Notes: generated by a model not told the origin, from the letters alone. A stretch of 64,000 nt of DNA from Thermodesulfobacteriota bacterium (GCA_024763535.1 JANTFH010000005.1:4612-68611); one strand, 5' to 3'. Counted from the stretch's first letter, positions 3,509 to 59,780 are shown. Translations and numbers: made by a program.

Positions 3509-4975
3509 ATGAAAAAAGTGATCACAGGAGTAATCTTTTTAATCTTTTTCAGCAGTGGATTATTGCTGGCCTGGTTCCCCGAAATAGCGTTGTCCGCGGT
3601 TTCCGGCAAATCCTTTTCAATCATCTACTCCTCGGATGAGAGAGGGGCGATCGCCCCGTGCGGCTGACATAAAAATCCGCGTGGCGGTCTGGCCAAGCGT
3701 GCGACTTATCTTGAAGAAATCGGTAAGAGTAAAACCCCTTATCTGGTGCTTAATGGAGGGAACCTGTTATTCAATCGGGAGTCTCTGAAGCCGGAAAAGG
3801 TCATTGCCGGCAAATTGCTGGCGGATCTGATCGTCTCCTCCTACAACAAGATGGGCTGTGATGCTTTGAACATCGGTGCCTACGACCTCTCTTTAGGGGT
3901 AGATTTTCTCCGGAAAAAAGAGAAGGCTGCCAAATTTCCCTTTCTCTCCGCAAATATAATGGATAAACACGGGAAACCGGTCTTTACTCCCTCTATAGTT
4001 AAAAAGATTAACGGAGTCAAAGTCGGTATTTTCGGAATCTGCAGCGACAAGCTGAAACTCAACAAGATACCCGGCGGCAATAAACTTAAGATTGCCAATG
4101 CTCTGGCCAAAGCTGAAGAGACAGCGCTACAGCTGCAACAGCAGGGGGCGGATTATATTATTCTTCTGACTACGCTCAATATCCGCCAGTGCCGCCGTCT
4201 GGGGCAGCGTGATATGCCGATTGATTTGATTGTCGGCAGCAGTAAGAGAAATCGTATATCCTTGCCAATTCTGGTTGATGATACCTATATAGTTCATGTT
4301 GAAAGAGGGGGCAAAAGTGTCGGTCGTCTCGATGTCAGCTTCCTCGGGCCGGCCGGAGTTCAGGCTTTGTCTCCGGCTGTTCGCTATAAGGGTAAAGCTG
4401 TTGGCGACAACCTGTTTTTATTGAATCATTTCCATCCGCTCAAGCTTGATATCCCGGATCATCCGGAGATTGCACCGATGGTAAAGAAGGTTGAGATCAG
4501 TCTGAGTCGTCTGCGGCAGGTAAAAGCGACGCAATCAATGACTATCGCCGGTGGTGGGGAAAAGGTGAAAATGGCCCCCGGCAATAGTTATGTATTTGCT
4601 GAAGCCTGTAATAAGTGTCACTCTCTACAGTTTCAACGCTGGCAGAAGACGGCGCATGCGAAAGCCTACACTTCCCTGATCAAGAACGATAAACATTTTG
4701 ATGAGGAGTGTATCTCCTGTCACGCTTTAGGTTACTCTCAGGCCGGAGGCTTTACGGATCTTCATCAGGTCGGTGAATTTGCCAATGTTCAATGCGAGTC
4801 CTGTCATGGTCCCGGCCGTCTGCATGTCAAATCCGAGGGTAAAACCAAGCTCAACCGGGATTTAGCTAACGGGAAGATGTGCCTTAAGTGTCATATCGAG
4901 GAGCGTAGCCCTGATTTTGACCTGGAAACCTATTTTCATAATGTCTGCGGGGCCGCTGCTATGCCGAAAAAATAG
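3509..4975 (+). CDS. Exported protein with a degenerate metallophosphoesterase (5'-nucleotidase/SoxB-like) domain and a C-terminal tetraheme c domain (4 CxxCH). It contains an in-frame TGA at 3665-3667 and is a putative selenoprotein (motif ...APCG-U-HK...).
   Basis: ORFs 3479..3667 and 3746..4975 share a frame and no other stop lies between them. The N-terminal piece carries the signal peptide (MKKVITGVIFLIFFSSGLLLAWF) and the C-terminal piece carries the heme motifs (CNKCH, CISCH, CESCH, CLKCH), which need export. The metallophosphatase ligand motifs are substituted (DxH to DE, GD to GN, GNHE to GAYD). A GGAG ribosome-binding site precedes ATG 3509. Confidence 0.5.
3678..3699 (+). ncRNA. 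SECIS-like hairpin 13 nt downstream of the in-frame UGA at 3665
   Basis: Stem cgcgtggc/gccaagcg (7 of 8 base pairs) with loop ggtctg, G-containing, at +21..+26 from the UGA. Confidence 0.4.
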
Positions 4976-5050
4976 TTCATGGATACCTGTATGTAAGCTG
5001 ATGTTGGTTTTCCGAAGGTTAACTTATGGGGTAACGGTGCTGATCTGTTT

Positions 5051-5584
5051 TTATGGTTGCGGCGGTAGACTTTTTTCGTTTTTGAGCAGGTCATTTTTGA
5101 GTTTGTCGAAGTCATCCCGGCTGATGAGACCGCGGTCGTAGAGGTCTGAGAGACGCAGGAGCTCGTTGCTGGGTGACGAGTTTAGTGGCGGGTATTCCGG
5201 AAGCGCATTGAGGGGGGTTATCTGGTTTTCGAGCATCACCTGCGGTTGTTGGTCCCGGTTCTGGCTTTTGATCGAGATTGAGGCCAGGCCGCCGAGCAGG
5301 CTTACCTCAATATTCTGTCCCGGAAACGGAGGGTTATGCAGGGTGTTTAATATCTGCTTGCCGTTCTGTTTCAGCAGGTAGTAGAAAAAAGCCCCGGAGG
5401 CAATTATCAGGATAACTCCGCCCCCCAGGATATACTCTATATATTCTGAAAGAGCCTGAATAAAGACCACCGCTGTTGCCAGAATAATAACCAGCAAAAG
5501 ATGAATCAGGAGGATCAGATATCCTGCCATTACTCCGCTTAAAAGCGGATTTTTTTTGCCTTCGCTTATCTTGTCTTCATTCAT
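5051..5584 (-). CDS. Membrane protein with a C-terminal SHOCT domain
   Basis: Two transmembrane helices followed by the C-terminal sequence LRLSDLYDRGLISRDDFDKLKNDLL, typical of SHOCT. Confidence 0.6.
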   Translation of the reverse strand: MNEDKISEGKKNPLLSGVMAGYLILLIHLLLVIILATAVVFIQALSEYIEYILGGGVILIIASGAFFYYLLKQNGKQILNTLHNPPFPGQNIEVSLLGGLASISIKSQNRDQQPQVMLENQITPLNALPEYPPLNSSPSNELLRLSDLYDRGLISRDDFDKLKNDLLKNEKSLPPQP

Positions 5585-5862: not shown

Positions 5863-5886
5863 GAAGAGTTGAATCTTCAGGAGACT

Positions 5887-8100
5887 TTAATATTTGTACT
5901 CTTTGTCTCCCAGAGTTTTAATCGTACTGTGTCTCTGGAGTTGAGCCCTGGCCCGATCAAGCAGATCCGTGACCTTTTTAGTCAGTTCCTTGGCAAACTC
6001 AAGGTTGTGAATCGGGTTTCCGTCCAGAAGTTTAAGGTTCTTCTCGGCGTTGTTGAGCAGATCCTGAGCCTCATACGTGTAATCTCCATTCTGGATGGCC
6101 AGCAGGACCGATCGCTGAGTTTGCTCAAGCTGTTCTTTAAGGCTGTCGATATTCAGGGCTTTAACCTCCTGACGCCACTCATCAACCATCTTGCCGTAGG
6201 CGGAGTCGTCATCGTGACACTCGATGCAGGCCTGTTTGAGGGCGGCATCGGTCATATCCTTCTCTTCGCTTACTTCAACATGGCAGTCGATACAGTTGAC
6301 CTCGGCCGCCATTGAACTGGGAGTTCCTTTGATGTCGCAACTTATTTCGTTGCAGGCATTCTGCCCGTGGATAAGATTGTAGGTGGCACTGTGACAATCT
6401 GCACACTCAACGGCACCGTTGCCGGAACCGTGGTGACAGTCTTTACAGTTTTTCAGGATCGTCCGGCCATGATGATCGCGGGAGCTGTGACAGTCGAGGC
6501 AGGCAAGGCCTTCGTCGACGACATGGACGTCATGCGGGAACTGAACATCACCGAAAGGTACGGGTTTGGTTTCAATACACTCAACACAGCTATGGCAGAG
6601 TTCGGTACAGCCGGTGGGTGAGGTAACCGCCTTAGCTTTGTAGGATGAATCGGCAATAGCTTTTGCTTTTTCACAACGTTCGCGACTGTCTGCGAGCAGA
6701 TTCAAAGCGTAATCGATGTTGTGGATTCCGTGGCTGTTCTTGACAAAGAGATAATTTTTCTGAGCTACCTCATAGAGTTTTGAGCCTTCTGGTGATTTTG
6801 TTTCGGTTAAAATCTGGTTGGTTTCGCGTAGGGTATTCGAGGTCTCGGCCAGCTCTTTTTTCAGAACCTCTTTCCAGTGCTTGGCCATATCGTCGTAACC
6901 GGCACCATGACACTCGGCACAGGATTTGATTAACTCATCAAAACCGGTACGTTTGAGTTTCCGGGTTTCACCATCGACATCATATACGGTCAGGTGACAG
7001 CTGGCACAGTCGAGGTGAGCCTTGTACATGCCGCTCGGCATCTCTTTAACATCCAGTCCGCCAACTCCGGCATACATGCTATGGACATTCTGGTGTTGAT
7101 CAAAGGTATGGCACTTGGCACAGTTGTGGTCATAGTGAAGCCCACTGTTGATTACCGCCGTTTTTATGATTCTCTGACGCTCCAGATACTTCGTCGATTT
7201 TTCGCGCGCGATATAGTGGTTGATATTGGCGTGGCAACGGAAACACTCAACCTTATGGGCAGTAACATGGTTGAAATGCATCTTTTCGCTGCTGTAACTG
7301 CCTTCCAGCAGATGAGGTTCGGAGTGACACTGGACGCAGACATTATCCATGACGTGGCCGTCACCGTAAATGATGCCGAAGTGACACTGCTCACAGTTAA
7401 CCCCGCGTTCGATGTAATCCTTGTGGACAAAAGGCTGATCCACATCCGCATCAACATATATCTTGGTTCGGTTTGAAGTATGGCAGGTCTGGCAGTCGGA
7501 AATCTCAAGATGGTTCTCTTTGTCGTAGAAGTGACACATGAAACAGGTGGTTTCCGTGACGGTGAGATGCTCACCCTGAACGATCTGGGAGTGGCAGCTG
7601 ACGCATTTCAGCTTTTTGCCGCGGCGCAGGTTGTCTAGATGGGTTTCATGGCTGAATTCGACCCCTTTGAAATTTACGGTGTTCTCTTTTAATTCGGTCA
7701 TCCCGTGACACCCATCTCGCAGACAGCTGGAATCGCTGATCTCGGTATGCGGCCGGGGGGGAGCCGTGCCGGTAATTTTCATAACTACATGTGTCTGAGC
7801 TTTCCATTTACCTTTGAGTTCGCCCCAGACGCCGGGCTCGAAATGACACTCAAGGCAACTGACTTCTTTATGGGAAGACTGTTTCCATGATTCGATATAG
7901 GAGTCCATGTTATGACACATACCACAGAATTTGTAGCTGGCGGTGGCCTTAAGGAGCAGGACGATCATTAGGATAAAGATACAGAAAGAAACAGCAAAGA
8001 ACACCAGCAGTCCTTTCCAGTGTTCGCGGGTACCGCGAGCCGCTTCGTGGCTGAAGTCACGGATAAAATCAATTAATAAATTCCACATTCTTCGAATCAT
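5887..8100 (-). CDS. Membrane-anchored multiheme c-type cytochrome, 737 aa. It has a NapC/NirT/NrfH-type N-terminus and about 15 canonical CxxCH sites plus 2-3 variant CxnCH sites.
   Basis: N-terminal cytoplasmic stretch and a transmembrane helix, then KFCGMCHNM...SCLECHFEPG (NrfH-like), followed by many CxxCH motifs and a C-terminal coiled-coil. AAGGAG ribosome-binding site 9 nt upstream. Confidence 0.85.
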   Translation of the reverse strand: MIRRMWNLLIDFIRDFSHEAARGTREHWKGLLVFFAVSFCIFILMIVLLLKATASYKFCGMCHNMDSYIESWKQSSHKEVSCLECHFEPGVWGELKGKWKAQTHVVMKITGTAPPRPHTEISDSSCLRDGCHGMTELKENTVNFKGVEFSHETHLDNLRRGKKLKCVSCHSQIVQGEHLTVTETTCFMCHFYDKENHLEISDCQTCHTSNRTKIYVDADVDQPFVHKDYIERGVNCEQCHFGIIYGDGHVMDNVCVQCHSEPHLLEGSYSSEKMHFNHVTAHKVECFRCHANINHYIAREKSTKYLERQRIIKTAVINSGLHYDHNCAKCHTFDQHQNVHSMYAGVGGLDVKEMPSGMYKAHLDCASCHLTVYDVDGETRKLKRTGFDELIKSCAECHGAGYDDMAKHWKEVLKKELAETSNTLRETNQILTETKSPEGSKLYEVAQKNYLFVKNSHGIHNIDYALNLLADSRERCEKAKAIADSSYKAKAVTSPTGCTELCHSCVECIETKPVPFGDVQFPHDVHVVDEGLACLDCHSSRDHHGRTILKNCKDCHHGSGNGAVECADCHSATYNLIHGQNACNEISCDIKGTPSSMAAEVNCIDCHVEVSEEKDMTDAALKQACIECHDDDSAYGKMVDEWRQEVKALNIDSLKEQLEQTQRSVLLAIQNGDYTYEAQDLLNNAEKNLKLLDGNPIHNLEFAKELTKKVTDLLDRARAQLQRHSTIKTLGDKEYKY

Positions 8101-8684: not shown

Positions 8685-9041
8685 ATGTCGCATGATTATA
8701 TTCCCGTTCTGGTAATGATGATTGTCGGTGTTGGTTTCGGTGTTGTGGCCGTGGTCTTATCTCGATTGCTTGGGCCGAACCGGAAATCAAGAGTCAAAAA
8801 AGAGACCTATGAATGTGGTATGACGACGATCGGTGCCTCCTATGTGCAGACGCCGATCAAATATTATGTTGTGGCTCTGTTATTTCTCGTATTTGATCTT
8901 GAATGTGTTTTTCTCTACCCCTGGGCTGTACATTATAAGAGTCTGGGGTTTTTTGGTTTCGTCGAGATGGTCCTCTTTATGGTGGTCCTCTTCGTCTGTT
9001 ATGTTTATGTCTGGAAAAAGGGAGCCTTGGAATGGGAATAG
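8685..9041 (+). CDS. nuoA: NADH-quinone oxidoreductase subunit A
   Basis: 118 aa with 3 transmembrane segments. It contains ECGM and FDLE...LYPWA motifs typical of NuoA. Confidence 0.95.
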
Positions 9042-9562
9042 AGAGTGCATTAAAGGGCGACGGATTCCTGGTCACCAACCTTGAGAGTTTAGTTAACTGG
9101 GGACGTAAGAATTCGATCTGGCCTTGTACCTTCGGTCTGGCCTGATGCGCTTTGGAGATGATGGCTACCAGTTTGGCTAGCTACGATATCGCCCGCTTCG
9201 GTTCCGAAGTTTTTCGGCCGTCGCCGCGTCAGTCCGATCTGATGATTGTTGCCGGTACCCTGACAAAAAAGATGTCGGTAATGGTGCAGAGAATTTATGA
9301 GCAGATGGCGGAGCCCCGCTGGGTTATCGCGATGGGTGCCTGTGCTTCCTGCGGCGGGGTTTTTCAGAGTTATTCCGTGGTTCAGGGGGTCGATCAGGTT
9401 ATTCCGGTTGATGTCTATGTTCCCGGTTGTCCGCCGCGGCCGGAAGCGCTGCTGGCCAGCGTGATGAAACTTCAGGACAAGATTATGAAAGATAAATTCA
9501 GTGATCGTCCTGATTATGAAGAGCCTTCAAGCAGCAAATCCGACATTGTCAGTTTGTGTTAG
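9032..9562 (+). CDS. nuoB: NADH-quinone oxidoreductase subunit B with an in-frame TGA (9143-9145) at the position of the first Cys of the conserved GLACCA N2-cluster ligand motif. Putative Sec-containing NuoB.
   Basis: ATG 9032 overlaps the nuoA stop. The translation reads [47 protein letters not shown]...MGACASCGG...PGCPPRPE. The TGA is in frame with the downstream ORF 9152..9562. Confidence 0.7.
9162..9183 (+). ncRNA. SECIS-like hairpin 16 nt downstream of the nuoB UGA
   Basis: Stem tggctacc/ggctagct, 8 base pairs with one bulged C, and an apical loop aguuu at +27..+31. Confidence 0.3.
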
Positions 9563-9598
9563 CATAGTATATTTTCAAAATTATAGAGTGCAGAAGAT

Positions 9599-10096
9599 AT
9601 GGAAAATGCGAAAGTAGTAGAGCAGATTAAAGGTAAATTTGCTGATGCGATCATCGAGGATATCGAGTTTCGCGGCGATTTGACCATCGTGGTCAGTCTT
9701 GAGAAGCTGCATGAGATTATGCTCTATATCCATGATGATGAGTCTTTGCATTACGACCTGTTGTCGGATGTGATCGGGATTGACAGACTGCCCCGTGAGC
9801 CCCGCTTTGAGATTGTCTATGTTCTCCACTCAATGGATGACTTCAGGCGCCTGATGGTCAAGGTTATGGTTGATGTCGATATCGCTGTTCCGACCGTAAC
9901 CGACATCTGGAAATCGGCAGACTGGCCGGAGCGTGAGGTCTATGACCTTCTGGGCGTGAGTTTCAGTGATCACCCGGATCTACGCCGGATCCTGATGTGG
10001 GATGATTTTGATGGCCACCCTTTGCGCAAGGACTTTCCTCTGAAAGGTAAGGACTTCGATAAAAAATGGGACCCATCAACCATTAAGGTTATGTAA
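9599..10096 (+). CDS. nuoC: NADH-quinone oxidoreductase subunit C
   Basis: Contains the NuoC 30-kDa family motifs (DLTIVV...LLSDVIGID...EREVYDLLGV). Confidence 0.9.
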   Translation: MENAKVVEQIKGKFADAIIEDIEFRGDLTIVVSLEKLHEIMLYIHDDESLHYDLLSDVIGIDRLPREPRFEIVYVLHSMDDFRRLMVKVMVDVDIAVPTVTDIWKSADWPEREVYDLLGVSFSDHPDLRRILMWDDFDGHPLRKDFPLKGKDFDKKWDPSTIKVM

Positions 10097-10232
10097 GTTT
10101 AAGGTTTGTGAATTAGAATCTGGTGCCTGCGGATTCCCTTTGATTATGAAAACCGGGGAATATCTTGATGACGGCACTTACTTGCGGGCAACACCCGCGT
10201 TAGTGATAACTATATCATAGAGGTTGGTAGCG

Positions 10233-11405
10233 ATGGCAGAAGGTAAAATATTGACCATCAACATGGGTCCGCATCATCCGGCGACTCACGGGGTCTTGCG
10301 CCTGGTTCTGGAGCTTGATGGCGAGACGATCGTCAAGGTCACGCCCCATATCGGGCATTTGCACCGGGGGATAGAGAAGCTTGCGGAAAACATGAATTAC
10401 CAGCAGGTTATTCCGCTTACTGACCGTTTTGACTACACTGCGGCATCACTCAACAATCTTGGTTACTGTACTGCGGTAGAGAAACTTCTGGGAATTGAAG
10501 TTCCGAAACGGGCTCAGTATATTCGCGTCATCATGTCCGAGCTGGCTCGGATCATGGGTCATCATCTCTGGATCGGCAGCCATGCTCTCGACATCGGGGC
10601 GATGACCGTAGTTTTCTACGCCTTCCGTGATCGTGAAATGATCATGAATATGGTTGAAGAGGTTTCCGGTTATCGTTTAACCCCTTCTTATATGCGGGTC
10701 GGTGGCTTGGCCCGGGATATCACCCCGGAATTCATTCGCTGTCTGCGCGAATTTATCAAATGGTTCCCGACCGCCGTGGCCGGCTACAATACATTGCTGA
10801 CCGATAATATCATCTGGCGCAAAAGAACCCAGGATATTGGGGTTATTTCAGCTGAAGATGCCATTAACTATGGTTTGACCGGGCCTTCGTTGCGGGGCTC
10901 CGGAGTCGCTTATGATCTACGTAAGGTGAAACCTTACAGCAGTTATGATGACTTCGATTTTCAGGTTCCGGTTGGTGACAAGGGTGATGTTTACGACCGT
11001 TATCTGGTGCGCATGGAAGAGTTTATTCAGTCGCTTAATATTATTGAACAGGCGCTTGAAAACTTGCCGGAAGGGCCGGTAAACGTTGATAACCCGCTGA
11101 TCTTCAACCCTCAGATTGAGGATGTGCAGGAAGATATCAGTGCCCTGATCCGTCGTTTTAAGATTCAGTGCCAGGGGCCTGAGATTCCTGAAGGTGAAAT
11201 CTATCATGCGGTTGAAGGGTCCAAGGGTGAACTCGGATTCTATCTGGTTGGTGACGGTACTGAACATCCCTACCGGATGAAGGTTCGCTCCCCCTGTTTT
11301 ATCCTGGTCAGCGCCTTGGAAAAATTGATGCTTGGTCACATGATCGCCGACGCGATTGCGATTATCGGCAGCATCGATATCGTTTTGGGTGAGATTGACC
11401 GCTAG
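10233..11405 (+). CDS. nuoD: NADH-quinone oxidoreductase subunit D
   Basis: NuoD/49-kDa family sequence (ILTINMGPHHPATHGVLRLVLELDGE...IGHLHRG...RVRSPCF). Start taken at ATG 10233, which has a GAGG ribosome-binding site. Confidence 0.95.
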   Translation: MAEGKILTINMGPHHPATHGVLRLVLELDGETIVKVTPHIGHLHRGIEKLAENMNYQQVIPLTDRFDYTAASLNNLGYCTAVEKLLGIEVPKRAQYIRVIMSELARIMGHHLWIGSHALDIGAMTVVFYAFRDREMIMNMVEEVSGYRLTPSYMRVGGLARDITPEFIRCLREFIKWFPTAVAGYNTLLTDNIIWRKRTQDIGVISAEDAINYGLTGPSLRGSGVAYDLRKVKPYSSYDDFDFQVPVGDKGDVYDRYLVRMEEFIQSLNIIEQALENLPEGPVNVDNPLIFNPQIEDVQEDISALIRRFKIQCQGPEIPEGEIYHAVEGSKGELGFYLVGDGTEHPYRMKVRSPCFILVSALEKLMLGHMIADAIAIIGSIDIVLGEIDR

Positions 11406-11493
11406 TTAGGGAAAGTGTAAATTTTTTAAGTTAGTTCGTAAGTTAGTTTGAGTTGCGGAGTCTGTTTTCGCATTAGTGAATGGGAGTCGGTTG

Positions 11494-13446: not shown

Positions 13447-13532
13447 TGCGGTCCTAAATCCGTGTTGAAGTATAGTTTTGCAAATAGAGTTTTGATTTTT
13501 TTAAGTAAAATTTTTACGCAGGGAAAATTAGC

Positions 13533-16208
13533 ATGGTCACGTTGACGATTGACGGCAAAGAAGTCACCGTCCCCCAGGGAACGACCATCCTTGAGGCGGC
13601 CCGGAGTGTCGATATCAGAATTCCGACACTCTGTTACCACGATCGTTTGAACCCTATCGGTTCATGTCGGATGTGTGTAGTTGAGATCGAAGGTTATACG
13701 CACCCGATGGCAGCCTGTACAACTCCGGTTGATGATGGGATTGAGGTTGTAACTAAATCTGATCGTCTGACTAGGATTCGTCAGGATTCGTTGAAACTGA
13801 TTCTGGTTAATCATCCGCTTGACTGTCCGGTTTGTGATAAGGGCGGCGAGTGCCTGTTGCAGGATTTGACCTACGAATTCGGGATTGATCAGGTTGAGTA
13901 TAAAGCGGCAAAAGTCGAGCGTGAATCACAGTATGCGACTCCGCTGATTCGTTACTGGCCCGACCGCTGTATCATGTGCCTGCGCTGCGTTACCGCCTGT
14001 CAGGAGATTAAGGGAATCGGCGCCATCAGTATTCAGGGAGACGGTTACGGAGCCCAGGTAGTGGCCGTAGATGCCGAGAAGTGTCAATCCTGCGGTGAGT
14101 GTCTGCAGGTCTGTCCGACCGGGGCCCTGACTGAGGATTTGAGCCGTTATAAAGGTCGCACCTGGCTGGTTGACAGAGTGCCGACCACCTGTACCTACTG
14201 CGGTTGCGGTTGTCAGCTTGAACTTAATGTTCAAAATGACCGGGTTATCGCCGTAACCACCCGGGAGGGGGTTGGCGTTAATCATGGCAGTCTCTGTGTC
14301 AAGGGCCGTTTCGGTTACGAATTTATCAACAGTGATGAACGGTTGACCAAACCGCTGATCAAGAAAAACGGCAAATTTGAAGAGGCGAGCTGGGATGAAG
14401 CTCTGGACCTGGTAGCCAGTAAGTTCTCTGCGATCAAAGAGGAACACGGCCCCGGTGCCCTGGCCGGCTTGACCTCGGCCCGTTGTACCAATGAAGAGAA
14501 CTACCTTTTCCAAAAATTTATGCGCGCGGCGGTCGGGACCAATAATGTCGATCACTGCGCCAGGCTCTGACACTCCTCAACTGTGGCCGGACTGGCCGCA
14601 ACGTTTGGCAGTGGAGCAATGACCAACCCGATTGCCGATGTCCTGAAATCAGAGACCGTATTGGTAACCGGAACTAATACCACGGAAAATCATCCGATTT
14701 TCGCCAATTACCTGAAAGAGGCCGTGCTTAAACACGGCACCAAGATTCTGGTGATCGATCCGCGGCGCATCGATCTGGTCGATTACGCCGAGCTCTACCT
14801 CCAGCCGAAACCGGGTACCGATATTGCCTGGATTAACGGTTTGATGCATATTATCATCAAGGAGGGCTGGGCGGCCCAGGATTATATCGACGAACGTTGT
14901 GAAGGTTTCGATGAATTTAAAAGCAATCTCGAAAAATTCACACCTGAATATGTTTCTGGAATTACCGGTCTGACCGAAGATGAGCTCTATGCCGCGGCCA
15001 AACTCTATGGCCAGGCGGCTCCGGCCTCAATCCTTTACGCCATGGGTATCACCCAGCATACCAGCGGTACCGATAATGTTAAATCATTAGGTAACCTGGC
15101 GATGCTTTGTGGTAACATGGGAGTTGCCGGCGGCGGCGTCAATCCGCTGCGGGGCCAGAACAATGTGCAGGGTGCCTGCGATATGGGTGGTCTGCCGAAT
15201 GTCTACACCGGTTATCAGAAGGTCGATGTTGATGAAGTGCGGGAGAAATTCGCCAAGGCCTGGGGGCTTGCGGCGGAGGCTATGGATTCAGCACCCGGTC
15301 TGAAACTGACCGAAATGTTTCCGGCAGCGGCCGAGGGTAAAGTCAAGGCTCTCTATATTATGGGTGAGAACCCGCTGGTCAGTGATCCCGATTTAACTCA
15401 TATTGAACACTGTATCGAAGCCCTTGATTTCTTCGTTGTGCAGGATATCTTTCTAACCGAAACGGCTAAGAAAGCCGATGTCGTGCTGCCCGGAGTCTCC
15501 TTTGCTGAAAAAGATGGAACCTTCGTCAATTCCGAGCGGGTTGTACAGCGGGTTCGTAAAGCATTAACGATTCCCGGCGAAGCTCGTGAAGACAGTGCTA
15601 TTATTGCCGATATCTCAACCCGTATGGGATATGAGATGAAATATGAAAGTGCCGCCGATATCATGAAAGAGATCAACGCTGTGACCCCGAGTTACGGCGG
15701 CATCACTTATGAACGTTTGGAAAACGGCGGCCTGGCCTGGCCCTGCCCCGACAGTGAACATCCCGGGACACCAATTCTGCATGTTGATAAATTTGCCCGC
15801 GGTAAAGGTCTCTTTTTCGCGATAGATCATCAGCCGCCGGCTGAACTCTGCGATAATGAGTATCCGTTTGTACTGTCGACCGGCCGTGTTCTCTCTCATT
15901 TCCATACCGGAACCATGACCCGCAAGGGTTCCGGCCTGAATAAGGTTCATCCTGAAGTCAAGGCTGAGATCAACCCTGAAGATGCCGCGCGTCTGGGGAT
16001 TGAAGCGGATGATCGTCTTAAGATTACCTCCCGCCGGGGTTCGATCGAGGTTAAAGCCATGCTCAGTGACCGTCCGGCAGCCGGGGTGGTATTTGTACCC
16101 TTTCACTTTCATGAAGTTGCAGTTAACCGTCTGACCAACGCGGCTCTCGATCCGGTTGCCAAAATTCCGGAATATAAGGTCTGCGCGATTAAGGTTGAAA
16201 AGGCTTAG
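13533..16208 (+). CDS. fdhA: NuoG/FdhA-like molybdopterin oxidoreductase catalytic subunit (formate dehydrogenase alpha-like) with selenocysteine encoded by in-frame TGA at 14568-14570
   Basis: ORFs 13533..14570 and 14583..16208 are in the same frame. The translation reads 2Fe-2S (CYHD...CRMC), HxxxCxxC, CIMCLRCVTAC, CQSCGECLQVCP, CTYCGCGCQ, then [29 protein letters not shown], the textbook Sec/Cys active-site motif of FdhA/FdhF. Confidence 0.85.
14582..14600 (+). ncRNA. SECIS-like hairpin 11 nt downstream of the fdhA UGA
   Basis: 7-bp stem tgtggcc/ggccgca with loop ggacu at +21..+25. Confidence 0.55.
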
Positions 16209-16265
16209 CCGGCAAAACGAGTCTAAATTATCGAAGTACTTTTACAGTTTGAAGAGGTATAACGG

Positions 16266-17252: not shown

Positions 17253-17306
17253 GATTAACCCAAACTGAGATAGTATTAGATTTAAGAATATAAATTTGAG
17301 GATAAT

Positions 17307-17783
17307 ATGGCTGACAAGGATTACATACTCAATATCAGTGACCGGCGCCCGACGGGTAAATATATCACGCCGATTCTGAAAGGCCTGGGTTACACGCTGA
17401 AGAATTTCTTCAGTAAGCCGATTACGATAAAATATCCGACCGAGCGCCGTGAAGTCAGCGACCGCTGGCGGGGCCTGCATCGTTTGAAAGTGGATGATCG
17501 GGGGGCTTTGAAATGTGTCGCCTGCGGCCTTTGCGCAAAGATCTGTCCGCCTAAGGCGATCACCATTGTGCCCTACGAAGAGGCCGGCGAAACCCGTTAT
17601 CCGAAAGAGTTTGTGATTGACGAGCTGCGTTGTATCTTCTGCGGCTTCTGTCAGGAAGCCTGTCCTAAAGATGCGATTGAGCTGACGAAAGTTTACGATT
17701 TTGTGGATTATAAACGCGAAGACTTTATCTTCGATATCGAAAAACTGAAAACCCCGGAAAAATATATCTTCAACGGCAAATAG
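17307..17783 (+). CDS. nuoI: NADH-quinone oxidoreductase subunit I (2x[4Fe-4S])
   Basis: Two ferredoxin-type motifs, CVACGLCAKICP and CIFCGFCQEACP. Confidence 0.95.
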   Translation: MADKDYILNISDRRPTGKYITPILKGLGYTLKNFFSKPITIKYPTERREVSDRWRGLHRLKVDDRGALKCVACGLCAKICPPKAITIVPYEEAGETRYPKEFVIDELRCIFCGFCQEACPKDAIELTKVYDFVDYKREDFIFDIEKLKTPEKYIFNGK

Positions 17784-17796
17784 TGGGAGTAGATTG

Positions 17797-18306: not shown

Positions 18307-18317
18307 AGGGAAAGGTA

Positions 18318-18623: not shown

Positions 18624-18724
18624 ATCTGTTTAGCTGAAGCTCGATCTTATTGTGTAAATTTAGAATCTCGTAAACTGAGTGTTTTGAGATAACGTTTTAA
18701 GATATTTTTTAAGGAGATAGAGGT

Positions 18725-20815: not shown

Positions 20816-20895
20816 AAACAGCTCTAAATTTAACGAAATTTTTTAATACAATTTATATCCCAAAGTTTAAATAGATTCCGCAGGGAGAGAGATAG

Positions 20896-48281: not shown

Positions 48282-48342
48282 CTTTTATTCTTGACTGTAA
48301 TTGTTTGGGCTGGATTTTGAAGGCTAAACCTCCGGGAAAGCT

Positions 48343-52069: not shown

Positions 52070-53785
52070 TCAGTCATCCAGCACCTGCTGGTGATGCTTG
52101 ATGATATTAAAGTCATCCGCGAAGATGTAGTCCAGAGTCGATTTAACTCGAAACTGGGCTTTGGTTATAAATATTTCTGCAATATTAACCTTACGTTCGG
52201 AGTTGAGACCATCTCGACAAAGCAGATAGGCGTAGATAACATCACAGGTCATATTGACCAGACGGTTTGTGTGGTATTCCTGGAAAACCGAATCACCTTT
52301 ATCTTTGATAAAAGAGATTGCCATCTCCAGATTTGTCCGCATCTTCTGAGCCGTTTTGAAAATTTCCCCGAGTTGGGAGAGATCGTAATTGTCTTCATAC
52401 TCGCTTAGTCTTTCGGAGACCACCCCGGCAACAATTCCGCCCACGGCGGCAATCGCCTGGAGCTGGGTGGTACCTTCATAAATATTGGTGATGCGGGCAT
52501 CGCGGTAGTGACGTTCGACATCAAACTCCTTGGTGAAACCGACTCCGGCATGAATCTGGATGGCATCGTAGGTGACCTTGTTGGCCATTTCGGCGGCTGA
52601 ACTTTTTGCCAGCGGGGTAAAGAGCGAGGCAAACCGGGTATAGCGCTTGAAATCAGCTTTAATATCAGCGGCCCGGTCGGGATGGCTTTCGATGCGCTCT
52701 TCGATCCCCTCTTTGATGTCGACAATCTTGGAGGTTTCATAGACCAGAGAGCGGGCCGCTTCGATTGCGACCTTCATATCGGTAAGCATCTCATAGATGA
52801 CAGCAAAGTTTCTAATCGGTTGCTTAAACTGAGCCCGGTCATTGGCATAGGCATAAGCTTTACGGTAGGCGGCTTCAGCGATGCCGACCGACTGGGCGGC
52901 AACTGCGAGGCGGGCACCGTTCATCAGATAGATGGTATATTTGATCAGTCCGAGTTTGCGTTTCCCTAGGAGTTCGGCCCTGGCATTGTTAAACTGAAGC
53001 TCGCAGGTCGGGGAGCCGGTGATCCCGAGCTTGTGCTCGATCCTTCGTACTCTCATATCCTGATCGCGTTCGTAAATAAAGAGTGAGAGTCCGCGGCCGC
53101 TGGTTGATCCCTCTTCCGTACGAGCCATAACTAGAGATATGTCGCCGCAGCCGTTGGTGATAAAACGTTTGACTCCGTTAAGGCGCCAAGTACCGTTTTC
53201 ATCCTGATGGGCTCGCATGGCGACCGACTGAAGATCAGACCCGGAATCAGGTTCGGTCAGAGCCATTGAGCCCATGACTTCGCCGCTGGCGAATTTAGGC
53301 AGGTATTTCTGTTTCTGTTCCTCGGAACCGAATTTACAGATGGTATCACTTAACCCCTGCAGGCCGAAAACCAGCATCAGGGAGGCATCGGCCCGGGAGA
53401 TCATCTCAATGGCGGCGGAGAAGATCGTAATCGGCATGTTTATACCCCCATATTTACGGGGCATGGTAAATCCGGCCAGATCAGCCTGGTTGATCCGTTC
53501 AATCGATTCGCGGATACCTTTCGGGTAGGTTACCTCGCCATCGGCATACCGGGCTTCCTCTTCATCCACCTCCCGGGCCCGGGGTTCGGCAAATTCTCCG
53601 GCGATCTCACCGACAATCTCCAGCACCCGGTCGTAGTTATCCATGGCGTCGGCCTGATCAACCGGGGCGTAGGGAAACTCATCCTTTTCTTTGAAACCGT
53701 CTTCTTTTAAGTCGATTACCCGGCTTAAATCGAGGTTTTCCATGTGAAAGAGTATATCTGCATTATCTCGATAATAGTTTACCAT
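52070..53785 (-). CDS. Acyl-CoA dehydrogenase (long form, about 570 aa)
   Basis: ACAD N-terminal, middle and C-terminal domain sequences. Adjacent to etfAB. Confidence 0.85.
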   Translation of the reverse strand: MVNYYRDNADILFHMENLDLSRVIDLKEDGFKEKDEFPYAPVDQADAMDNYDRVLEIVGEIAGEFAEPRAREVDEEEARYADGEVTYPKGIRESIERINQADLAGFTMPRKYGGINMPITIFSAAIEMISRADASLMLVFGLQGLSDTICKFGSEEQKQKYLPKFASGEVMGSMALTEPDSGSDLQSVAMRAHQDENGTWRLNGVKRFITNGCGDISLVMARTEEGSTSGRGLSLFIYERDQDMRVRRIEHKLGITGSPTCELQFNNARAELLGKRKLGLIKYTIYLMNGARLAVAAQSVGIAEAAYRKAYAYANDRAQFKQPIRNFAVIYEMLTDMKVAIEAARSLVYETSKIVDIKEGIEERIESHPDRAADIKADFKRYTRFASLFTPLAKSSAAEMANKVTYDAIQIHAGVGFTKEFDVERHYRDARITNIYEGTTQLQAIAAVGGIVAGVVSERLSEYEDNYDLSQLGEIFKTAQKMRTNLEMAISFIKDKGDSVFQEYHTNRLVNMTCDVIYAYLLCRDGLNSERKVNIAEIFITKAQFRVKSTLDYIFADDFNIIKHHQQVLDD

Positions 53786-53895
53786 TTTAAACTCACTCCT
53801 TAATGCACTCGTAAAAGATCACGGAAAGGCAAAATAAAAAATTCGATACTCAATAACGCAGAAGATCGAAACTTTTTTACTTAGCCATAAGCTCC

Positions 53896-54906
53896 TTAGG
53901 CTTTTCTGTAGGCCTTAATCATCTTATTCAGGACATCCTTGACATCGCCGACGATGCCGTAGTGGGCGATAGCGAAAATCGGGGCATGGGGGTCTTTGTT
54001 TATAGCGATGATCCGTTTAGCCTCGGACATTCCGGCCCGGTGCTGGATCTGTCCGGAAATGCCGCAGGCTATGTAAAGATTGGGCCGTACCGTAATTCCG
54101 GTCTGGCCGACCTGGTGATCCTTGTCGAGGATACCCGAATCAACTACCGGCCGGGAGCAGCCTAATTCACCGCAGAGCGCGTGCGCCAGTTCCCGGGCCA
54201 GTTCTATCGCCTCGGGGTCGGAAGCCCCCATGCCGGCGGAGACGATAATCTGGGCGGCCTTCAGGTTAACGGCTTTCTCTTCACTTATAACTTCAAGTAC
54301 TTCAGTGAGAAAATCATCGTCACTGAGTTGGCAGGCCTGATTGACAACCTCAACCGTCAAGCCGGGGTTCGGAGCTGCCATCTTCATAACCCCCTCACGA
54401 ACAGTCGCCATGCTCGGCATACTTTCCGGAGAGACAATGGTCGCAATAATATTGCCGCCGAAAGCGGGGCGAATCTGGAGCAGAATATTTTTGTAGATTT
54501 TATCCTTGATCTTGTGTTCACCGATCTGCAAATCGGTGCAGTCTGCAGTCAGACCGCATTTCAAGGCGGATGCGACTCTGGGAGCGACATCCCGGCCCAT
54601 GGTTGTGGCCCCGAAGAGGACAATTCCGGGATTGTGGGCCTTGATGGTGTTGATAACCGTTTTGGCATACGGGATGGAGGTGAAGTGGGCCAGTCGCGCG
54701 TCATCCGTATAGTAGACCCTTTGACAGCCGTGATGACCTAAAACGGCAAGTTCATCGGTGAGGTTGTGGCCGACGGCTACGGCTTCAACCTGAACCCCGA
54801 GTTGTTCGGCGAGATCTGTGGCGGCCCCGAGTAGCTCCAGGCTGACTTCGGCAATTTTACCGGCTCGTGACTCGATGAAGACCATTACGTTTTTTTGTTT
54901 ACTCAT
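53896..54906 (-). CDS. etfA: Electron transfer flavoprotein alpha subunit
   Basis: EtfA FAD-binding C-terminal domain sequence. Confidence 0.9.
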   Translation of the reverse strand: MSKQKNVMVFIESRAGKIAEVSLELLGAATDLAEQLGVQVEAVAVGHNLTDELAVLGHHGCQRVYYTDDARLAHFTSIPYAKTVINTIKAHNPGIVLFGATTMGRDVAPRVASALKCGLTADCTDLQIGEHKIKDKIYKNILLQIRPAFGGNIIATIVSPESMPSMATVREGVMKMAAPNPGLTVEVVNQACQLSDDDFLTEVLEVISEEKAVNLKAAQIIVSAGMGASDPEAIELARELAHALCGELGCSRPVVDSGILDKDHQVGQTGITVRPNLYIACGISGQIQHRAGMSEAKRIIAINKDPHAPIFAIAHYGIVGDVKDVLNKMIKAYRKA

Positions 54907-54973
54907 ATTTTTTATTTCTCCTGCTGTCTTTAGGAACTTACAGGTTGTTATTTTCTATTTTCGTCGTGGGTTG

Positions 54974-55843
54974 TCATCCGATGATATTTTCACTGACCAG
55001 TTCATTCATGAGAGCGTTGATCTCCGATTCGCTGTTGGCTATCTGGCGGCTTTCACAGCCGCTCAGAACCACACTCTGAATCTTTTTAACCTTGGTCGGT
55101 GAACCGGAAAGACCGCATTGAACCGGGTCGGCTTTAATCGATTCTACGTTCCACTCTTTTATATGACTTAAAATACTGCAGTTCTCTGTTGCCAGATAAC
55201 TTTCGCCATAGGACGAATTGCAGATCTCTTTACCGATATTTTTGTAGGTCATTACCTTCTTGGCATTGGCCGAACGGGGTTCGTTGGCACTGGCGGTAAT
55301 CGTCAAAAGTACCGGGAAGCCGCTTTTGACAATCTCGTAACCATCTTCGACCGAGCGTTTCGCGGTGATTGATTCATCATTAATTTCAGTTACGGAGGAT
55401 ATGCAGGTGAGCTGGTTGATCTCAAGTTTTTCCGCAATCTGCGGTCCGACCTGAGCCGTATCACCGTCAATTGCCTGGCGGCCGCAGAGGATAAGGTCAT
55501 AGTCACCAGTCTGTTCAATGGCACACTTTAACGCGTATGAGGTTGCCAGGGTGTCGGCTCCGGCAAAGCGCCGGTCGGAGACCAGAATGGCGTCATCAGC
55601 TCCCCGATAGAGGCACTCTTTCAAAACCTCGACCGCATTCGGCGGCCCCATAGAGATGCAGGTAACGTGACCGCCGGCTCTCTCCTTGATTTTTAACGCC
55701 TCTTCCAGGGCATTGAGGTCTTCAGGGTTGAAAATTGTCGGTAGAGCGGCTCGATTTACAGTCCCATCTTCCTTCATGGCCTCCCCGGTAACGTTGTGTG
55801 TATCGGGAACCTGCTTGACGGTTACAATCATCCGTAAACCCAT
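54974..55843 (-). CDS. etfB: Electron transfer flavoprotein beta subunit. The start could instead be M5 at 55831.
   Basis: The MIVTVKQVPD N-terminus is typical of EtfB. Confidence 0.9.
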   Translation of the reverse strand: MGLRMIVTVKQVPDTHNVTGEAMKEDGTVNRAALPTIFNPEDLNALEEALKIKERAGGHVTCISMGPPNAVEVLKECLYRGADDAILVSDRRFAGADTLATSYALKCAIEQTGDYDLILCGRQAIDGDTAQVGPQIAEKLEINQLTCISSVTEINDESITAKRSVEDGYEIVKSGFPVLLTITASANEPRSANAKKVMTYKNIGKEICNSSYGESYLATENCSILSHIKEWNVESIKADPVQCGLSGSPTKVKKIQSVVLSGCESRQIANSESEINALMNELVSENIIG

Positions 55844-56430: not shown

Positions 56431-57441
56431 ATGAAAATGAAGAAAAATTGGCTTTTGCTGGGTGCAGGGTTGCTGATGGTGCTGGCGATGACCATCACGG
56501 CCTGTACGACTTTGAGTGATCAAAGAGCCAGCGTTCTCAAGTTGCCGGTTCCCGTTCAGGGGGCTCAGTTTGCCGGGAGTGAGGCTTGTGCCGACTGCCA
56601 CGAAGAACTGGTGGCAACTTTCAGCGGCTCGATTCATGATCGGATCCTGGCCAAAGAGACAGCGATCGGCATGAAAGGCTGTGAGACCTGCCATGGTCCC
56701 GCCAGCCTGCATATGGATTCTGAGGATCCGGAACAGATTATCGCTTTTGAAAATCTGGATGCCGGAACTTCATCCGCGGTCTGTCTGCGTTGTCATAGTG
56801 ACGGTGAACATTTCGACTGGGCCGGTACCTCGCATCCGATGAATGATGTCGGTTGCTTGAGCTGTCATAAAATCCATAATCCACCGGTGGCGAAAAATTC
56901 GCTGGAAAAGGCCGAGCCGGAACTCTGTTATGAGTGTCATGCGCTGGAGCGGGCGAAGATGTACTATCCTTCGCATCATCCGGTTAAAGAGGGCAAGATG
57001 GTCTGCAGTGACTGTCACGCCAATCACGGTTCAATGGTTAATAACCTGAAAACCGATGAACGTCTTAACGATCTCTGTTTAAATTGTCATGCCCGTTATC
57101 AGGGCCCGTTCGTTTTCGAACATTCACCGGTTTCCGATGATTGTATGATCTGTCACGATCCGCACGGTACGGTTTCTAATAATCTCAAAAAAGCGAATGA
57201 ACCTTACCTCTGCCTGCAGTGTCACGAGCCGCATTTCCACGCCGGCCGGACTTCAACCCCGACGGGTGTAATGAAGGATCCGTATGGTAATTTGGTTCCA
57301 GAGAAAGATTATAACAGCGGTAATAAAAATGTTTGGGCTCAGGCTTACGCTACCAAATGTACTCAGTGTCATGCCCAGATTCACGGCAGCGATCTGCCCT
57401 CCCAGACGGTTCCCGGACAGGGCGGGGGTTTAACCAGATAA
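56431..57441 (+). CDS. Periplasmic decaheme c-type cytochrome (MtrA/PioA/MtoA-like size and heme count)
   Basis: Signal peptide with a possible lipobox (ITAC) and 10 CxxCH motifs in 336 aa. A beta-barrel gene follows 15 nt downstream. Confidence 0.85.
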   Translation: MKMKKNWLLLGAGLLMVLAMTITACTTLSDQRASVLKLPVPVQGAQFAGSEACADCHEELVATFSGSIHDRILAKETAIGMKGCETCHGPASLHMDSEDPEQIIAFENLDAGTSSAVCLRCHSDGEHFDWAGTSHPMNDVGCLSCHKIHNPPVAKNSLEKAEPELCYECHALERAKMYYPSHHPVKEGKMVCSDCHANHGSMVNNLKTDERLNDLCLNCHARYQGPFVFEHSPVSDDCMICHDPHGTVSNNLKKANEPYLCLQCHEPHFHAGRTSTPTGVMKDPYGNLVPEKDYNSGNKNVWAQAYATKCTQCHAQIHGSDLPSQTVPGQGGGLTR

Positions 57442-57455
57442 TTTAAGGAGAGATT

Positions 57456-59780
57456 ATGAAACGTATTGCACAATACACGATTCTGGCCCTCTGCCTGGTG
57501 CTGGTACCGGTTCTTGCGTGGGCGGGACAAACCACGGGCAGTGTCGGGATTGGTATTCAGGGAGTCGATATTAACGACTCACGCGAGGGTGCGGCTGAGT
57601 ATCTTACTGCCGAACAGGGCGGCCGGCCGACATTTGACATGACGGTCAACGGCGAACAAAACGGCGTCAAATATGATTTCGGGATGAATTTTCTCAATGA
57701 AGATGATCTTGGTGGCAATCTTGATTTAGACCTGAAGCGTTATTTTAGGACTAAAAACAGTTACCAGAAATTTAACCACTGGTTGGAAAATGATGACCTC
57801 GTTAACCATAATGAGGATCCTGATTTTAGGTTTCCAACCGGAATGACAGAAACAAACCCTTACTACATTGCGGCCGCCAGTAAGGCAGTTTTTAATAAAC
57901 CGCAAGTAATGGGACCCAATATTGCGGTAGCCCGGAATACTTCCTGGGGCGATGATCTTTATGTTGTCCGTGATGAATTTGTTTCCGAGAATGAATTTCT
58001 GCTTCCCGGAGCCGAGTTCATTAAAATTCATGCAAAATATCGGATGGAACAGCGTGAAGGTTACGAACAGACCAAGACTTTGAGTAAATGCGGCGGCTGT
58101 CATCTGGCGGCGGATAAACACAAAATCGATGAAGAGACCCAGGATTTTCAGATCGGGGCGACCGCTCATTTAGGTCTGGTAACTCTGGATTACACCTTCC
58201 TGCGACGCACTTTTGATGAGAATTCAAACGCGCCGACACATACTTATATGTCAGCCGGGTCATTGCAGAAAAAGATGGCGATTGACGGATCTGATGGTGA
58301 AGTGATCTATGCCGCGACCCCGGATTCCGAGAAGGATTCTCATATTATCAAAGCTCAGGTGGCGTTGCCGATGAATACGGCGGTTTTCGGTAGCTACGTT
58401 CATACCGAAATCGATAATAATGACGCCAAGAGCAATAATGTGGGTGATGTAACTATCAGCAGCGATCCGGGTTTTGATTATGATGCCTACGCGATGCGGG
58501 TTACCTCTTCACCGCTTCACTTTATGACGATGTCATTCAAGTATCGTCATGAAGATCTCGACGCTGATGATGTTACAATTCTGTTTGATGACTCAGCTTA
58601 TGACCCGCTGGGGCGTGATTCCCAAGTACTGGATCCGACAAACTACGGTCTCCATGGCTACTCGGAAGAGCATGACGGCTGGCCGCGTGAACGGCAGTCG
58701 ACCCTGTCTCGCAATATCGACACTTACGGGGCCGAGTTCAAATTCAAGGTTTTCAAACGTACCAACCTGCTGGTTGGCTGGGAGCGGGAAGAGGAAGATA
58801 TCGATGTTGAGTGGGAGACCACCACGGATATCTATTCGGTTGCTTTAAACAGTCGTCTGATTAAAAATTTGAGTCTGCGTCTGCAGTATGATTACGAGGA
58901 TATTGACGATCCTTTCGCTAATGAGCACGCGGCTTATACTGATCCGGCAGCTATGCTTACCTGGCTTAAGGCGACGGTCGATCCCACCTGTGGTCTGCCG
59001 GCCTGTAGTATTAAAGGTATGGCCAGTCCCGGCAGCCCCAAAGCGGCCGAGTATACGGTGATGTATAACAGTCGTCAGCTTGATCTGACTTCCGAGCCCG
59101 AAAGTGCGCATCATTTCAAAGCGCATGCCTCTTATAACATTACACCGCGCATTGTTGCCAGTGGTCATTTCCAGTATGATCTGGAAGAGGTCAAAATTGA
59201 TGCGCCGGGACATGGCAACACCTTCGACAAGGAGATGTATGCTGTGGGGGCCGATCTTTTTCTCGCACCGCTGGATAATCTGACGTTTACGTTGGCTTAT
59301 AACTACCTCGATATGGAGGATCAGGCTTTTCTCTCCGCGGTTGCCTATGGCGGCTGAGCCGGCTCTTTTTTGTCCCCAAGTTATGGGGTCACATTGTCGG
59401 ATATGGAGAACAACACCGAAGTTCACACCCTGCTTGTAAGTGCTGATCTTGCAGCGACTGAGAAACTTAAATTCAACGGTGGTATAATCTTTAACTGGAG
59501 CAAATCCGAGATGGATAATCTCAGTGCCTCCTATTATGAAGGTAAGCAGCCGGCCGCATTTGGTTACGACCATGCGATCGCTTTCAGTACCTGGGAAGAT
59601 AATACCGATCAGGATATTCAGGAGGTTGAGTACTACCTGGGTTGTTCGTATGATGTCAATGATATGATGTCAGTTAATATTAATGCCTCATATACCGACT
59701 ATACCGATGACGAGCCCTATCTTTATGATACTGATGGCGATCTCCTCCTGGTTAATGCCGGTCTGACTTTCAGATTCTAA
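57456..59780 (+). CDS. Outer-membrane beta-barrel protein (MtrB/PioB-like porin partner of the decaheme cytochrome). It contains an in-frame TGA at 59355-59357 and one CGGCH motif.
   Basis: Signal peptide and amphipathic beta-strand pattern. ORFs 57456..59357 and 59370..59780 share a frame with no intervening stops. Only the downstream piece ends in the typical outer-membrane-protein C-terminal signature ...GLTFRF. Confidence 0.55.
59374..59388 (+). ncRNA. SECIS-like hairpin 16 nt downstream of the UGA at 59355
   Basis: Stem cccca/ugggg with loop aguua at +24..+28 from the UGA. Confidence 0.3.

Follow-up and report, generated by a model that had tools for sequence, protein, structure and literature searches.

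Four genes interrupted by a single in-frame TGA

We analyzed a window of 64,000 nucleotides (nt) from what is evidently a metagenome-assembled contig of a Thermodesulfobacteriota bacterium (GCA_024763535.1, JANTFH010000005.1:4612-68611). In-frame TGA codons at 3665, 9143, 14568, and 59355 interrupt four recognizable and otherwise open proteins, one codon in each. They are an UshA-like protein, the complex I subunit NuoB, a formate dehydrogenase alpha subunit (FdhA), and an outer-membrane protein of the GSU2204 family. Translation confirmed the positions and the reading frame given for the four codons in the initial annotation of this sequence. The genes and the predicted selenocysteine (Sec, U) residues are as follows.

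3509..4975, + strand: UshA-like (seleno)protein gene; NF041198 UshA_like_PCGU, 368.4 bits against a cut-off of 275
3665..3667, + strand: in-frame TGA of the UshA-like gene, predicted Sec53; motif APCG-U (APCG*HKNPRGG)
9032..9562, + strand: nuoB, complex I 20-kDa/PSST subunit, 176 codons; NF005012, 247.7 bits (cut-off 116), and TIGR01957, 237.9 bits (cut-off 142.7)
9143..9145, + strand: in-frame TGA of nuoB, predicted Sec38; motif FGLA-U-CALEMM
13533..16208, + strand: formate dehydrogenase alpha gene (fdhA); TIGR01591, 872.8 bits against a cut-off of 666
14568..14570, + strand: in-frame TGA of fdhA, predicted Sec346; HCARL-U-HSS, the canonical molybdenum-ligand position
57456..59780, + strand: gene of a GSU2204-family CXXCH MtrB/PioB-type outer-membrane beta-barrel (seleno)protein, 774 codons; NF041027, 502.7 bits against a cut-off of 350
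59355..59357, + strand: in-frame TGA of the GSU2204-family gene, predicted Sec634; motif AYGG-U-AGSF

In a six-frame scan that treated TGA as a sense codon, we used a threshold of 150 codons and set aside shadow frames, which are out-of-frame or antisense copies of another gene. Exactly four long non-shadow frames with a single deep TGA were found in the window, and there was no further candidate among frames of at least 150 codons, no dedicated scan being made below that size. The uncovered stretches between open reading frames (ORFs) are short, leaving little room for a small selenoprotein gene. Four of about 50 genes in the window carry an in-frame TGA. The largest reported bacterial selenoproteomes comprise 46-63 genes (PMC12013277, PMC13188914), and a single window is too small a sample for calling the whole genome selenoprotein-rich.

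TGA also serves as a stop codon in the window. Among 38 tallied ORFs, TAA ends 20, TAG ends 7, and TGA ends 11 (about 29%), with nuoM as an additional TGA-ended gene. The genes that had been named as ending in TGA (nuoM, a parA-like gene, recQ, and a DHH/DHHA1 gene of the nrnA-like type) all do so. The TGA-ended LivH-like protein aligns through profile position 307/308 and the TGA-ended RecQ through position 590/591. TGA ends this share of the tallied genes, and the products align through to the last positions of their family profiles; it therefore works as an ordinary stop codon, which excludes global recoding. The GC content is 46-53%, in line with the earlier estimate of about 50%.

Each of the four TGAs is kept in independent assemblies of relatives; this conservation check had been proposed in the initial annotation, and all four genes passed it. 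The expectation that annotation pipelines would call such genes as split also proved right. In the public gene calls of relatives, NuoB is divided into 37 and 133 amino acids (aa), FdhA into 345 and 541 aa, the UshA-like protein into 46-47 and 385-410 aa, and the GSU2204-like protein into 633 and about 125 aa. We consider it very likely that all four TGAs are Sec codons. The hairpins, the conserved TGAs, the family models, and the working TGA stops agree on Sec decoding rather than global recoding, as originally suggested. The UshA-like, FdhA, and GSU2204-like proteins are ordinary members of already catalogued selenoprotein families, and NuoB has good support as a candidate new family of wide occurrence, in which selenium would sit at the terminal Fe-S cluster of complex I.

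Hairpins downstream of the TGA codons

The published model of the bacterial selenocysteine insertion sequence (SECIS) has a loop of 3-9 nt with a G at loop position 1 or 2, a spacing of 16-37 nt, and a folding energy of -7.5 kcal/mol or lower (PMC13188914). A hairpin follows each of the four TGAs.

3678..3699, + strand: SECIS-like hairpin of the UshA-like gene; loop GGUCUG, 18 nt after the UGA, 7 base pairs (bp), -10.4 kcal/mol
9162..9183, + strand: SECIS-like hairpin of nuoB; UGGCUACCA/GUU/UGG-C-UAGCUA, loop 25 nt after the UGA, -7.3 kcal/mol
14572..14612, + strand: SECIS hairpin of fdhA; loop GGACU, 18 nt after the UGA, inner stem of 10 bp, -17.7 kcal/mol
59371..59391, + strand: SECIS-like hairpin of the GSU2204-family gene; UG-CCCCA/AGUUA/UGGGG-CA, 21 nt after the UGA, 7 bp, -8.8 kcal/mol

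Three of the sites pass the published criteria outright. The nuoB hairpin, which consists of a 3-bp upper stem, a 1-nt bulge, and a further 6 bp with a loop of GUU or AGUUU, is marginal in the window and passes in close relatives (-8.8 kcal/mol). An outer helix spanning 59360-59399 surrounds the GSU2204-family hairpin. Our filter tolerates bulges; a stricter filter demanding at least 4 contiguous upper-stem pairs misses the bulged nuoB hairpin. Of 3000 in-frame positions drawn at random from the window genes, about 13% are followed by a hairpin of -7 kcal/mol or better. Such hairpins were found at 4/4 in-frame TGAs and at 0/12 genuine TGA stops, which bears out the claim of a downstream hairpin at every TGA; the chance of 4/4 is about 3e-4. 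In Rfam, the full RF01989 SECIS_3 model aligns with 14565-14623 at fdhA, with 50.4 bits against a gathering threshold of 63 and E = 3.9e-11 in a 201-nt search. Nothing in the window reached an Rfam gathering threshold.

The nuoB TGA falls on the first cysteine of the N2 ligand set

The nuo operon (8685-24092) has the order nuoA-B-C-D...H-N and is without nuoE, nuoF, and nuoG. Their place between nuoD and nuoH is taken by a GltD-like gene (11476-13446), followed by the TGA-containing fdhA (13533-16208). The GltD-like protein of 656 aa is an NAD(P)-binding flavoprotein with the C-terminal 4Fe-4S domain of NuoF. The same GltD/FdhA layout is present in Tharpellota-like loci and in Syntrophaceae-type loci, the latter with 54-58% identity over the full length.

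The product of nuoB contains the Pfam domain Oxidored_q6 (PF01058) and aligns with Thermus thermophilus Nqo6 (PDB 2FUG chain 6) at a constant offset of +7 (E = 5e-68). In this alignment, U38, C39, C104, and C133 of NuoB correspond to Cys45, Cys46, Cys111, and Cys140 of Nqo6, which are the four ligands of cluster N2. Three of the four ligand positions are thus cysteine codons in the window gene: positions 39, 104, and 133 are Cys, and the first position of the consecutive pair, 38, is TGA. If this codon is read as Sec, the ligand set becomes one Sec and three Cys, with unchanged geometry and a different atom. The TGAs of both nuoB and fdhA fall on Cys/Sec ligand positions of characterized homologues, as had been claimed for these two genes. 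Two consecutive cysteines have been described as ligands of N2, and this arrangement has been connected with the chemistry by which complex I pumps protons (PMC4758237).

Compared with canonical NuoB/Nqo6/PSST (NDUFS7; PDB 2FUG, 4HEA), the window protein is homologous over its full length, has the four N2 positions in register, and is encoded in the usual place of the operon, between nuoA and nuoC/D. It differs in that the first of the consecutive ligand cysteines is a TGA followed by a SECIS-like hairpin. A second difference is a conserved extra C-terminal tail, ...(D/E)I(V/I)SLC, which ends in Cys. This tail is found in the NuoB proteins of the window's clade (P0031-P0054, P0123-P0130), and the nearest full-length homologues outside the clade are without it. 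NuoB is a homologue of the hydrogenase small subunit, as also seen in weak hits to NF045520 and TIGR00391. A Sec at a metal-binding Cys position is a feature shared with the [NiFeSe] hydrogenases. In those enzymes, however, the Sec belongs to the large subunit (homologous to NuoD) and coordinates Ni; the predicted Sec of NuoB is in the homologue of the small subunit, where it would be a ligand of the quinone-reducing [4Fe-4S] cluster. The adjacent Cys/Sec arrangement of NuoB is similar to that of the 'CU' selenoprotein families.

Distribution of the TGA form of nuoB

The nearest NuoB homologues (91-97% identity) are all deposited as 133-aa fragments starting from MATSL, and each is preceded by a 37-aa ORF ending in TGA. 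Six close loci (L001-L005 and L007), from three NCBI metagenome-assembled genomes (MAGs) and from contigs of ENA and Logan, share this TGA, and the sequence on either side of it shows many synonymous differences. In the window's nuoB clade (16 sequences), the ratio of nonsynonymous to synonymous substitution rates is 0.085 over the 37 codons before the TGA and 0.039 over the 130 codons after it, and both halves of the gene are under purifying selection.

We searched contigs from one genome per species with a degenerate DNA pattern for FGLA-TGA-C-A-x-E-M, for which our own estimate of chance matches is about 0.07 hits. At least 120 TGA-nuoB loci were found in species-representative genomes, and each listed locus is a nuoB gene whose frame stays open before and after the TGA. 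By record title, they are distributed as follows.

Nitrospirota/Thermodesulfovibrionales: at least 58 loci
Thermodesulfobacteriota/Deltaproteobacteria, including the isolate Thermodesulfatator autotrophicus S606: at least 47 loci
Candidatus Tharpella: at least 2 loci
Labelled Proteobacteria/Pseudomonadota: at least 5 loci (four in the window's NuoB clade, one near relative)
Chloroflexota: at least 3 loci
Candidatus Udaeobacter: at least 1 locus
Unclassified: at least 4 loci

Syntrophaceae are among the Thermodesulfobacteriota with TGA-nuoB. In the cultured isolate T. autotrophicus S606 (NZ_LSFI01000021.1, our locus L100), the nuoB TGA lies at about 29,999. At least three MAGs have two separate TGA-nuoB loci each (L053 and L083, L043 and L119, L016 and L096). 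The locus from a Ca. Udaeobacter sp. MAG (L080, DATBDJ010000013.1) is the sole Verrucomicrobia-labelled hit among the matches listed, and its TGA is without a SECIS-like hairpin; an error, a pseudogene, or mis-binning of the contig may explain this locus.

Three kinds of operon carry TGA-nuoB: the GltD/FdhA type, an 11-subunit type, and, in Nitrospirota, a type with NuoF/NuoG that looks canonical. We considered whether the TGA form is tied to the GltD/FdhA operon and rejected this from the alignment lengths, in which the Nitrospirota loci match only the NuoF C-terminal domain of the GltD-like protein and look canonical. Since the Nitrospirota and 11-subunit loci are without the GltD/FdhA layout, TGA-nuoB is not specific to one operon type.

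RNA-level constraint and Cys/TGA switching in nuoB

The NuoB clades differ in residues 7-13 after the Sec position, yet each forms a hairpin there by matched codon choice. Ala-Ala-Gly-Ser-Ser is encoded as GCU GCU GGA AGC AGC, Thr-Thr-Gly-Ser-Ser as ACG ACG GGA UCG UCA, and Ala-Cys-Gly-Ser-Ser as GCU UGC GGG UCA AGC. Within the window's clade, a change of ACC to ACU in locus L007 is compensated by a change of GCU to AGU, giving a perfect 8-bp stem.

As a control, we used 120 Cys-type nuoB loci collected from metagenomes with the same pattern carrying TGY, together with very close Cys forms, and compared 116 distinct TGA-form sequences with 122 distinct Cys-form sequences. The register of the hairpin shifts by 1-3 nt between clades, so we used z-scores against synonymous-codon shuffles and per-codon synonymous entropy instead of column-wise covariation. 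A SECIS-like hairpin is present in 81% of the TGA forms and 37% of the Cys forms. The mean z-score against shuffles drawn from each locus's own codon usage is -1.39 for the TGA forms and -0.27 for the Cys forms (Mann-Whitney p = 1e-18, a value inflated by relatedness). In the largest TGA group (34 distinct sequences), the stem codons have zero synonymous entropy, whereas flanking codons and the glycine codon in the loop have non-zero values. In Cys-form nuoB with identical amino acids, in contrast, the stem sites vary freely. Synonymous sites that are frozen in TGA forms and free in Cys forms provide a clean internal control for SECIS detection in conserved coding sequences.

Position 38 of NuoB is Cys in P0001-P0030 and in P0123, P0125, and P0130. 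The last three cluster with the TGA forms at 90% identity and lie in the same operon. Two Cys-nuoB loci, L248 and L250, keep the TGA in fdhA, and L250 also keeps it in the UshA-like gene. Because these near-identical Cys forms keep the other TGAs, NuoB has switched recently between Cys and Sec within Sec-using lineages.

Novelty and implications of the predicted Sec in NuoB

Neither 'NuoB' nor 'Nuo' occurs in a 2026 review of prokaryotic selenoproteomes (PMC13188914). Its 'NADH:ubiquinone oxidoreductase subunit E' was considered as a complex I entry and rejected, being NqrE (COG2209). In NCBIfam release 20, only ordinary NuoB models match. In the searched papers combining selenocysteine or selenoproteins with NuoB or complex I, we found no report of Sec in NuoB, which is not proof of absence, and no such protein is mentioned in a second review, the deep-Sep paper, or the 'eight unexpected families' preprint. 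On balance, we lean slightly toward Sec-NuoB, with Sec as an N2 ligand, being an undescribed and widespread family. It would span Thermodesulfovibrionia/Nitrospirota, Syntrophaceae and other Thermodesulfobacteriota, Tharpellota, and Chloroflexota, with repeated switching to and from Cys.

If this is true, selenium sits at the quinone-reducing Fe-S center of respiratory complex I in many anaerobes, and the core respiration of many sediment, groundwater, and vent anaerobes depends on selenium supply. Sec may then tune the potential, the protonation, or the robustness of N2, or the position may be a facultative Sec/Cys site served by a selC* tRNA-Cys. A natural Sec-for-Cys NuoB with near-identical Cys sisters would be a ready-made isosteric probe of N2, available in at least one cultured organism, T. 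autotrophicus S606. All four genes and their relatives are split or truncated in databases, and intact complex I, formate dehydrogenase, and outer-membrane conduits are consequently undercounted in metabolic reconstructions.

FdhA, UshA-like, and GSU2204-family proteins

The N-terminus of FdhA is NuoG-like, with 2Fe-2S and 4Fe-4S domains. HCARL-TGA-HSS is present in 17/17 related loci that reach the gene, and Cys is found at this position in 0/17. FdhA is catalogued as a selenoprotein family (PMC13188914). The protein shares with the Sec formate dehydrogenases of the Escherichia coli FdhF type (TIGR01591) the UGA at the catalytic Sec/Cys position (...CARxUH...), and the fdhA hairpin, with its GG-starting loop 18 nt downstream, matches Rfam SECIS_3. 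It differs from that type in its NuoG-like Fe-S module and in its location inside the nuo operon. The pairing of the GltD-like protein with FdhA presumably resembles Geobacter SfrAB, and the layout suggests that formate and/or NAD(P)H may feed complex I by way of a module of the SfrAB type.

The UshA-like protein combines a signal peptide with a metallophosphatase-like domain, which contains the APCG-U motif, and a C-terminal four-heme (CXXCH) domain of the cytochrome c554 type (Pfam Cytochrome_C554). PCG-TGA is kept in 3/3 relatives (L001, L005, and L250), with the same hairpin in all three. It resembles the NF041198 PCGU type in score, in the exact PCGU motif, and in the C-terminal multiheme domain, with no notable difference. 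The family is catalogued as a selenoprotein with the motif CxU (PMC13188914). An ORF of 106 aa without a family match (3304-3624, - strand) lies antisense over the 5' end of the UshA-like gene; it is probably spurious, and a gene caller might choose it once the UshA-like gene is split at the TGA.

The GSU2204-family protein matches Pfam MtrB_PioB and has a heme motif, CGGCH, at residues 212-216. The NF041027 profile (GSU2204_Se_pt_1, positions 1-580) ends at residue 633, just before the TGA. All 35 homologues (50-100% identity) are likewise called as proteins stopping there, which counts toward conservation of this TGA. Directly upstream lies a gene for a GSU2203-family decaheme cytochrome (56431-57441, + strand; NF041028, 430 bits), and the cytochrome and the Sec porin form a porin-cytochrome pair. 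The window protein agrees with the NF041027 family in score, profile end, CXXCH motif, and the adjacent GSU2203-type decaheme gene, with no notable difference.

Decoding of the TGA codons and alternative explanations

We infer that the four codons are decoded by SelB and tRNA-Sec. Sec-tRNA(Sec) would be delivered by SelB tethered to a bacterial SECIS hairpin inside the coding sequence, starting about 11-17 nt after the UGA, and this standard bacterial route is the most likely one at all four codons. With selenium inserted in this way, the predicted products are a periplasmic UshA-like multiheme PCGU protein, a GSU2204-type heme-binding outer-membrane barrel, Sec-FdhA, and Sec-NuoB. In FdhA, Sec would occupy the molybdenum/tungsten site of the formate dehydrogenase catalytic subunit that replaces NuoG in the nuo operon. 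In NuoB, Sec38 would replace the first N2 ligand cysteine and ligate the cluster.

Several observations weigh against this reading. No selA, selB, or selD gene, and no tRNA-Sec by ARAGORN, was found in the 64-kb window or in the TGA-nuoB and related loci analyzed, although the canonical Sec codon that fdhA has in all its relatives lends indirect support to a Sec apparatus. The nuoB hairpin of the window, at -7.3 kcal/mol, falls narrowly short of the cut-off of -7.5 kcal/mol and has an upper stem of only 3 bp before the bulge. Rfam gave no match at three of the four TGA sites even in permissive scans. The TGA and Cys samples of nuoB are phylogenetically non-independent and come from different collections, and the p-values overstate their independence. 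Finally, no Cys-containing homologue of the GSU2204-family protein was seen among 36 hits, so the usual Cys/Sec pairing is unavailable for this protein. Nearly all selenoproteins have Cys homologues (PMC12013277), which makes a family without a visible Cys counterpart unusual.

Among the alternatives, the one that survives best is that some UGA-plus-hairpin sites, in particular that of nuoB, are partly read as Cys by a tRNA-Sec-like tRNA-Cys (selC*) that has a UCA anticodon and is delivered by a second SelB (SelB*); the protein could then be produced both with and without selenium. Such tRNAs, some with an opal anticodon, and selB*/cysS* have been reported from Thermodesulfobacteria, Thermodesulfovibrio, Smithella, and other delta-proteobacteria (PMC5389517), and TGA-nuoB is found in these same lineages. 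This coincidence means that some UGAs could be read as Cys at selenium scarcity. Either Cys or Sec as the Fe-S ligand should give a working protein, and NuoB switches between its Cys and TGA forms inside a single cluster of 90% identity. However, no such tRNA or selB* is present in the window or the fetched loci, and only a subset of the reported selC* genes has the UCA anticodon (PMC5389517). This route would also add to Sec decoding rather than replace it, as all selC*-containing genomes had the full Sec apparatus (PMC5389517). We consider partial reading as Cys unlikely.

A second alternative concerns the outer-membrane gene only. The TGA at 59355 may be a real stop, with 59358-59780 being a separate small gene or untranslated. 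No full-length Cys homologue of the porin was found, and a Sec in an outer-membrane barrel has no obvious chemistry. On the other hand, the 140 codons downstream are in frame and conserved down to 52% identity: L254 (52% identity) and L256 (76%) keep the TGA, about 140 further open codons, and the ...RF end seen in all three sequences. Both also carry an equivalent hairpin (CCCAA/GUU/UUGGG), so the hairpin after the porin TGA is conserved. Beta-barrel outer-membrane proteins typically end in an aromatic residue. The ...RF terminus lies past the TGA, and the barrel would be incomplete without read-through. The name of NF041027 as 'Se part 1', its end at the residue before the TGA, and the listing of the GSU2204 family as a selenoprotein (PMC13188914) also argue for Sec, and we regard a real stop at this codon as very unlikely.

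Sequencing or assembly errors, or inactivating mutations that made the four genes pseudogenes, would be conceivable in a metagenome-assembled contig whose four genes are all called split by public pipelines, and homopolymer or assembly errors had been named in advance as what would overturn the Sec reading. This did not turn out to be the case. None of the four TGAs lies inside a homopolymer run, and the same TGA codon recurs in many independent assemblies from different samples and phyla. Conservation of every TGA in independent assemblies effectively excludes an assembly error or a pseudogene. In addition, both nuoB halves are under strong purifying selection, and the sequences after the TGAs are open and conserved to natural C-termini. 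We therefore regard this explanation as highly improbable. The weakest alternative, TGA as sense genome-wide (genetic code 4 or 25), would account for four in-frame TGAs in 64 kb, but it has a negligible probability, as the initial annotation had judged, since TGA ends the tallied ORFs and nuoM noted above at family-profile ends, the in-frame sites are only four, those of nuoB and fdhA are at Cys/Sec ligand positions and not at scattered Trp/Gly, and the GC content is about 50%.

Host affiliation and neighboring genes

At the DNA level, the nuo region shares 74-84% identity with MAG contigs from its NuoB clade and about 77% with Ca. Tharpella aukensis and Ca. Tharpella sp. Judging from this similarity, the host is probably a Tharpellota-like anaerobe (Tharpellota/Desulfobacterota-like) of hydrothermal or marine sediment. 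The paper describing Ca. Tharpella makes no mention of selenocysteine, and it leaves the respiratory acceptor of Tharpellota open (PMC9213671).

Between the UshA-like gene and the nuo operon lies a gene for a NapC/NirT-type multiheme cytochrome of 737 aa (5887-8100, - strand). The multiheme cytochromes and the Sec porin fit respiration of an extracellular or periplasmic acceptor. An acyl-CoA dehydrogenase gene adjoins the genes for the alpha and beta subunits of an electron-transfer flavoprotein (52070-55843, - strand), a cluster consistent with the fatty-acid oxidation proposed for Tharpellota (PMC9213671). At 45117-46829 (- strand), a single ORF of 570 aa combines ribose-5-phosphate isomerase B (residues 8-147) with serine hydroxymethyltransferase (residues 164-566).

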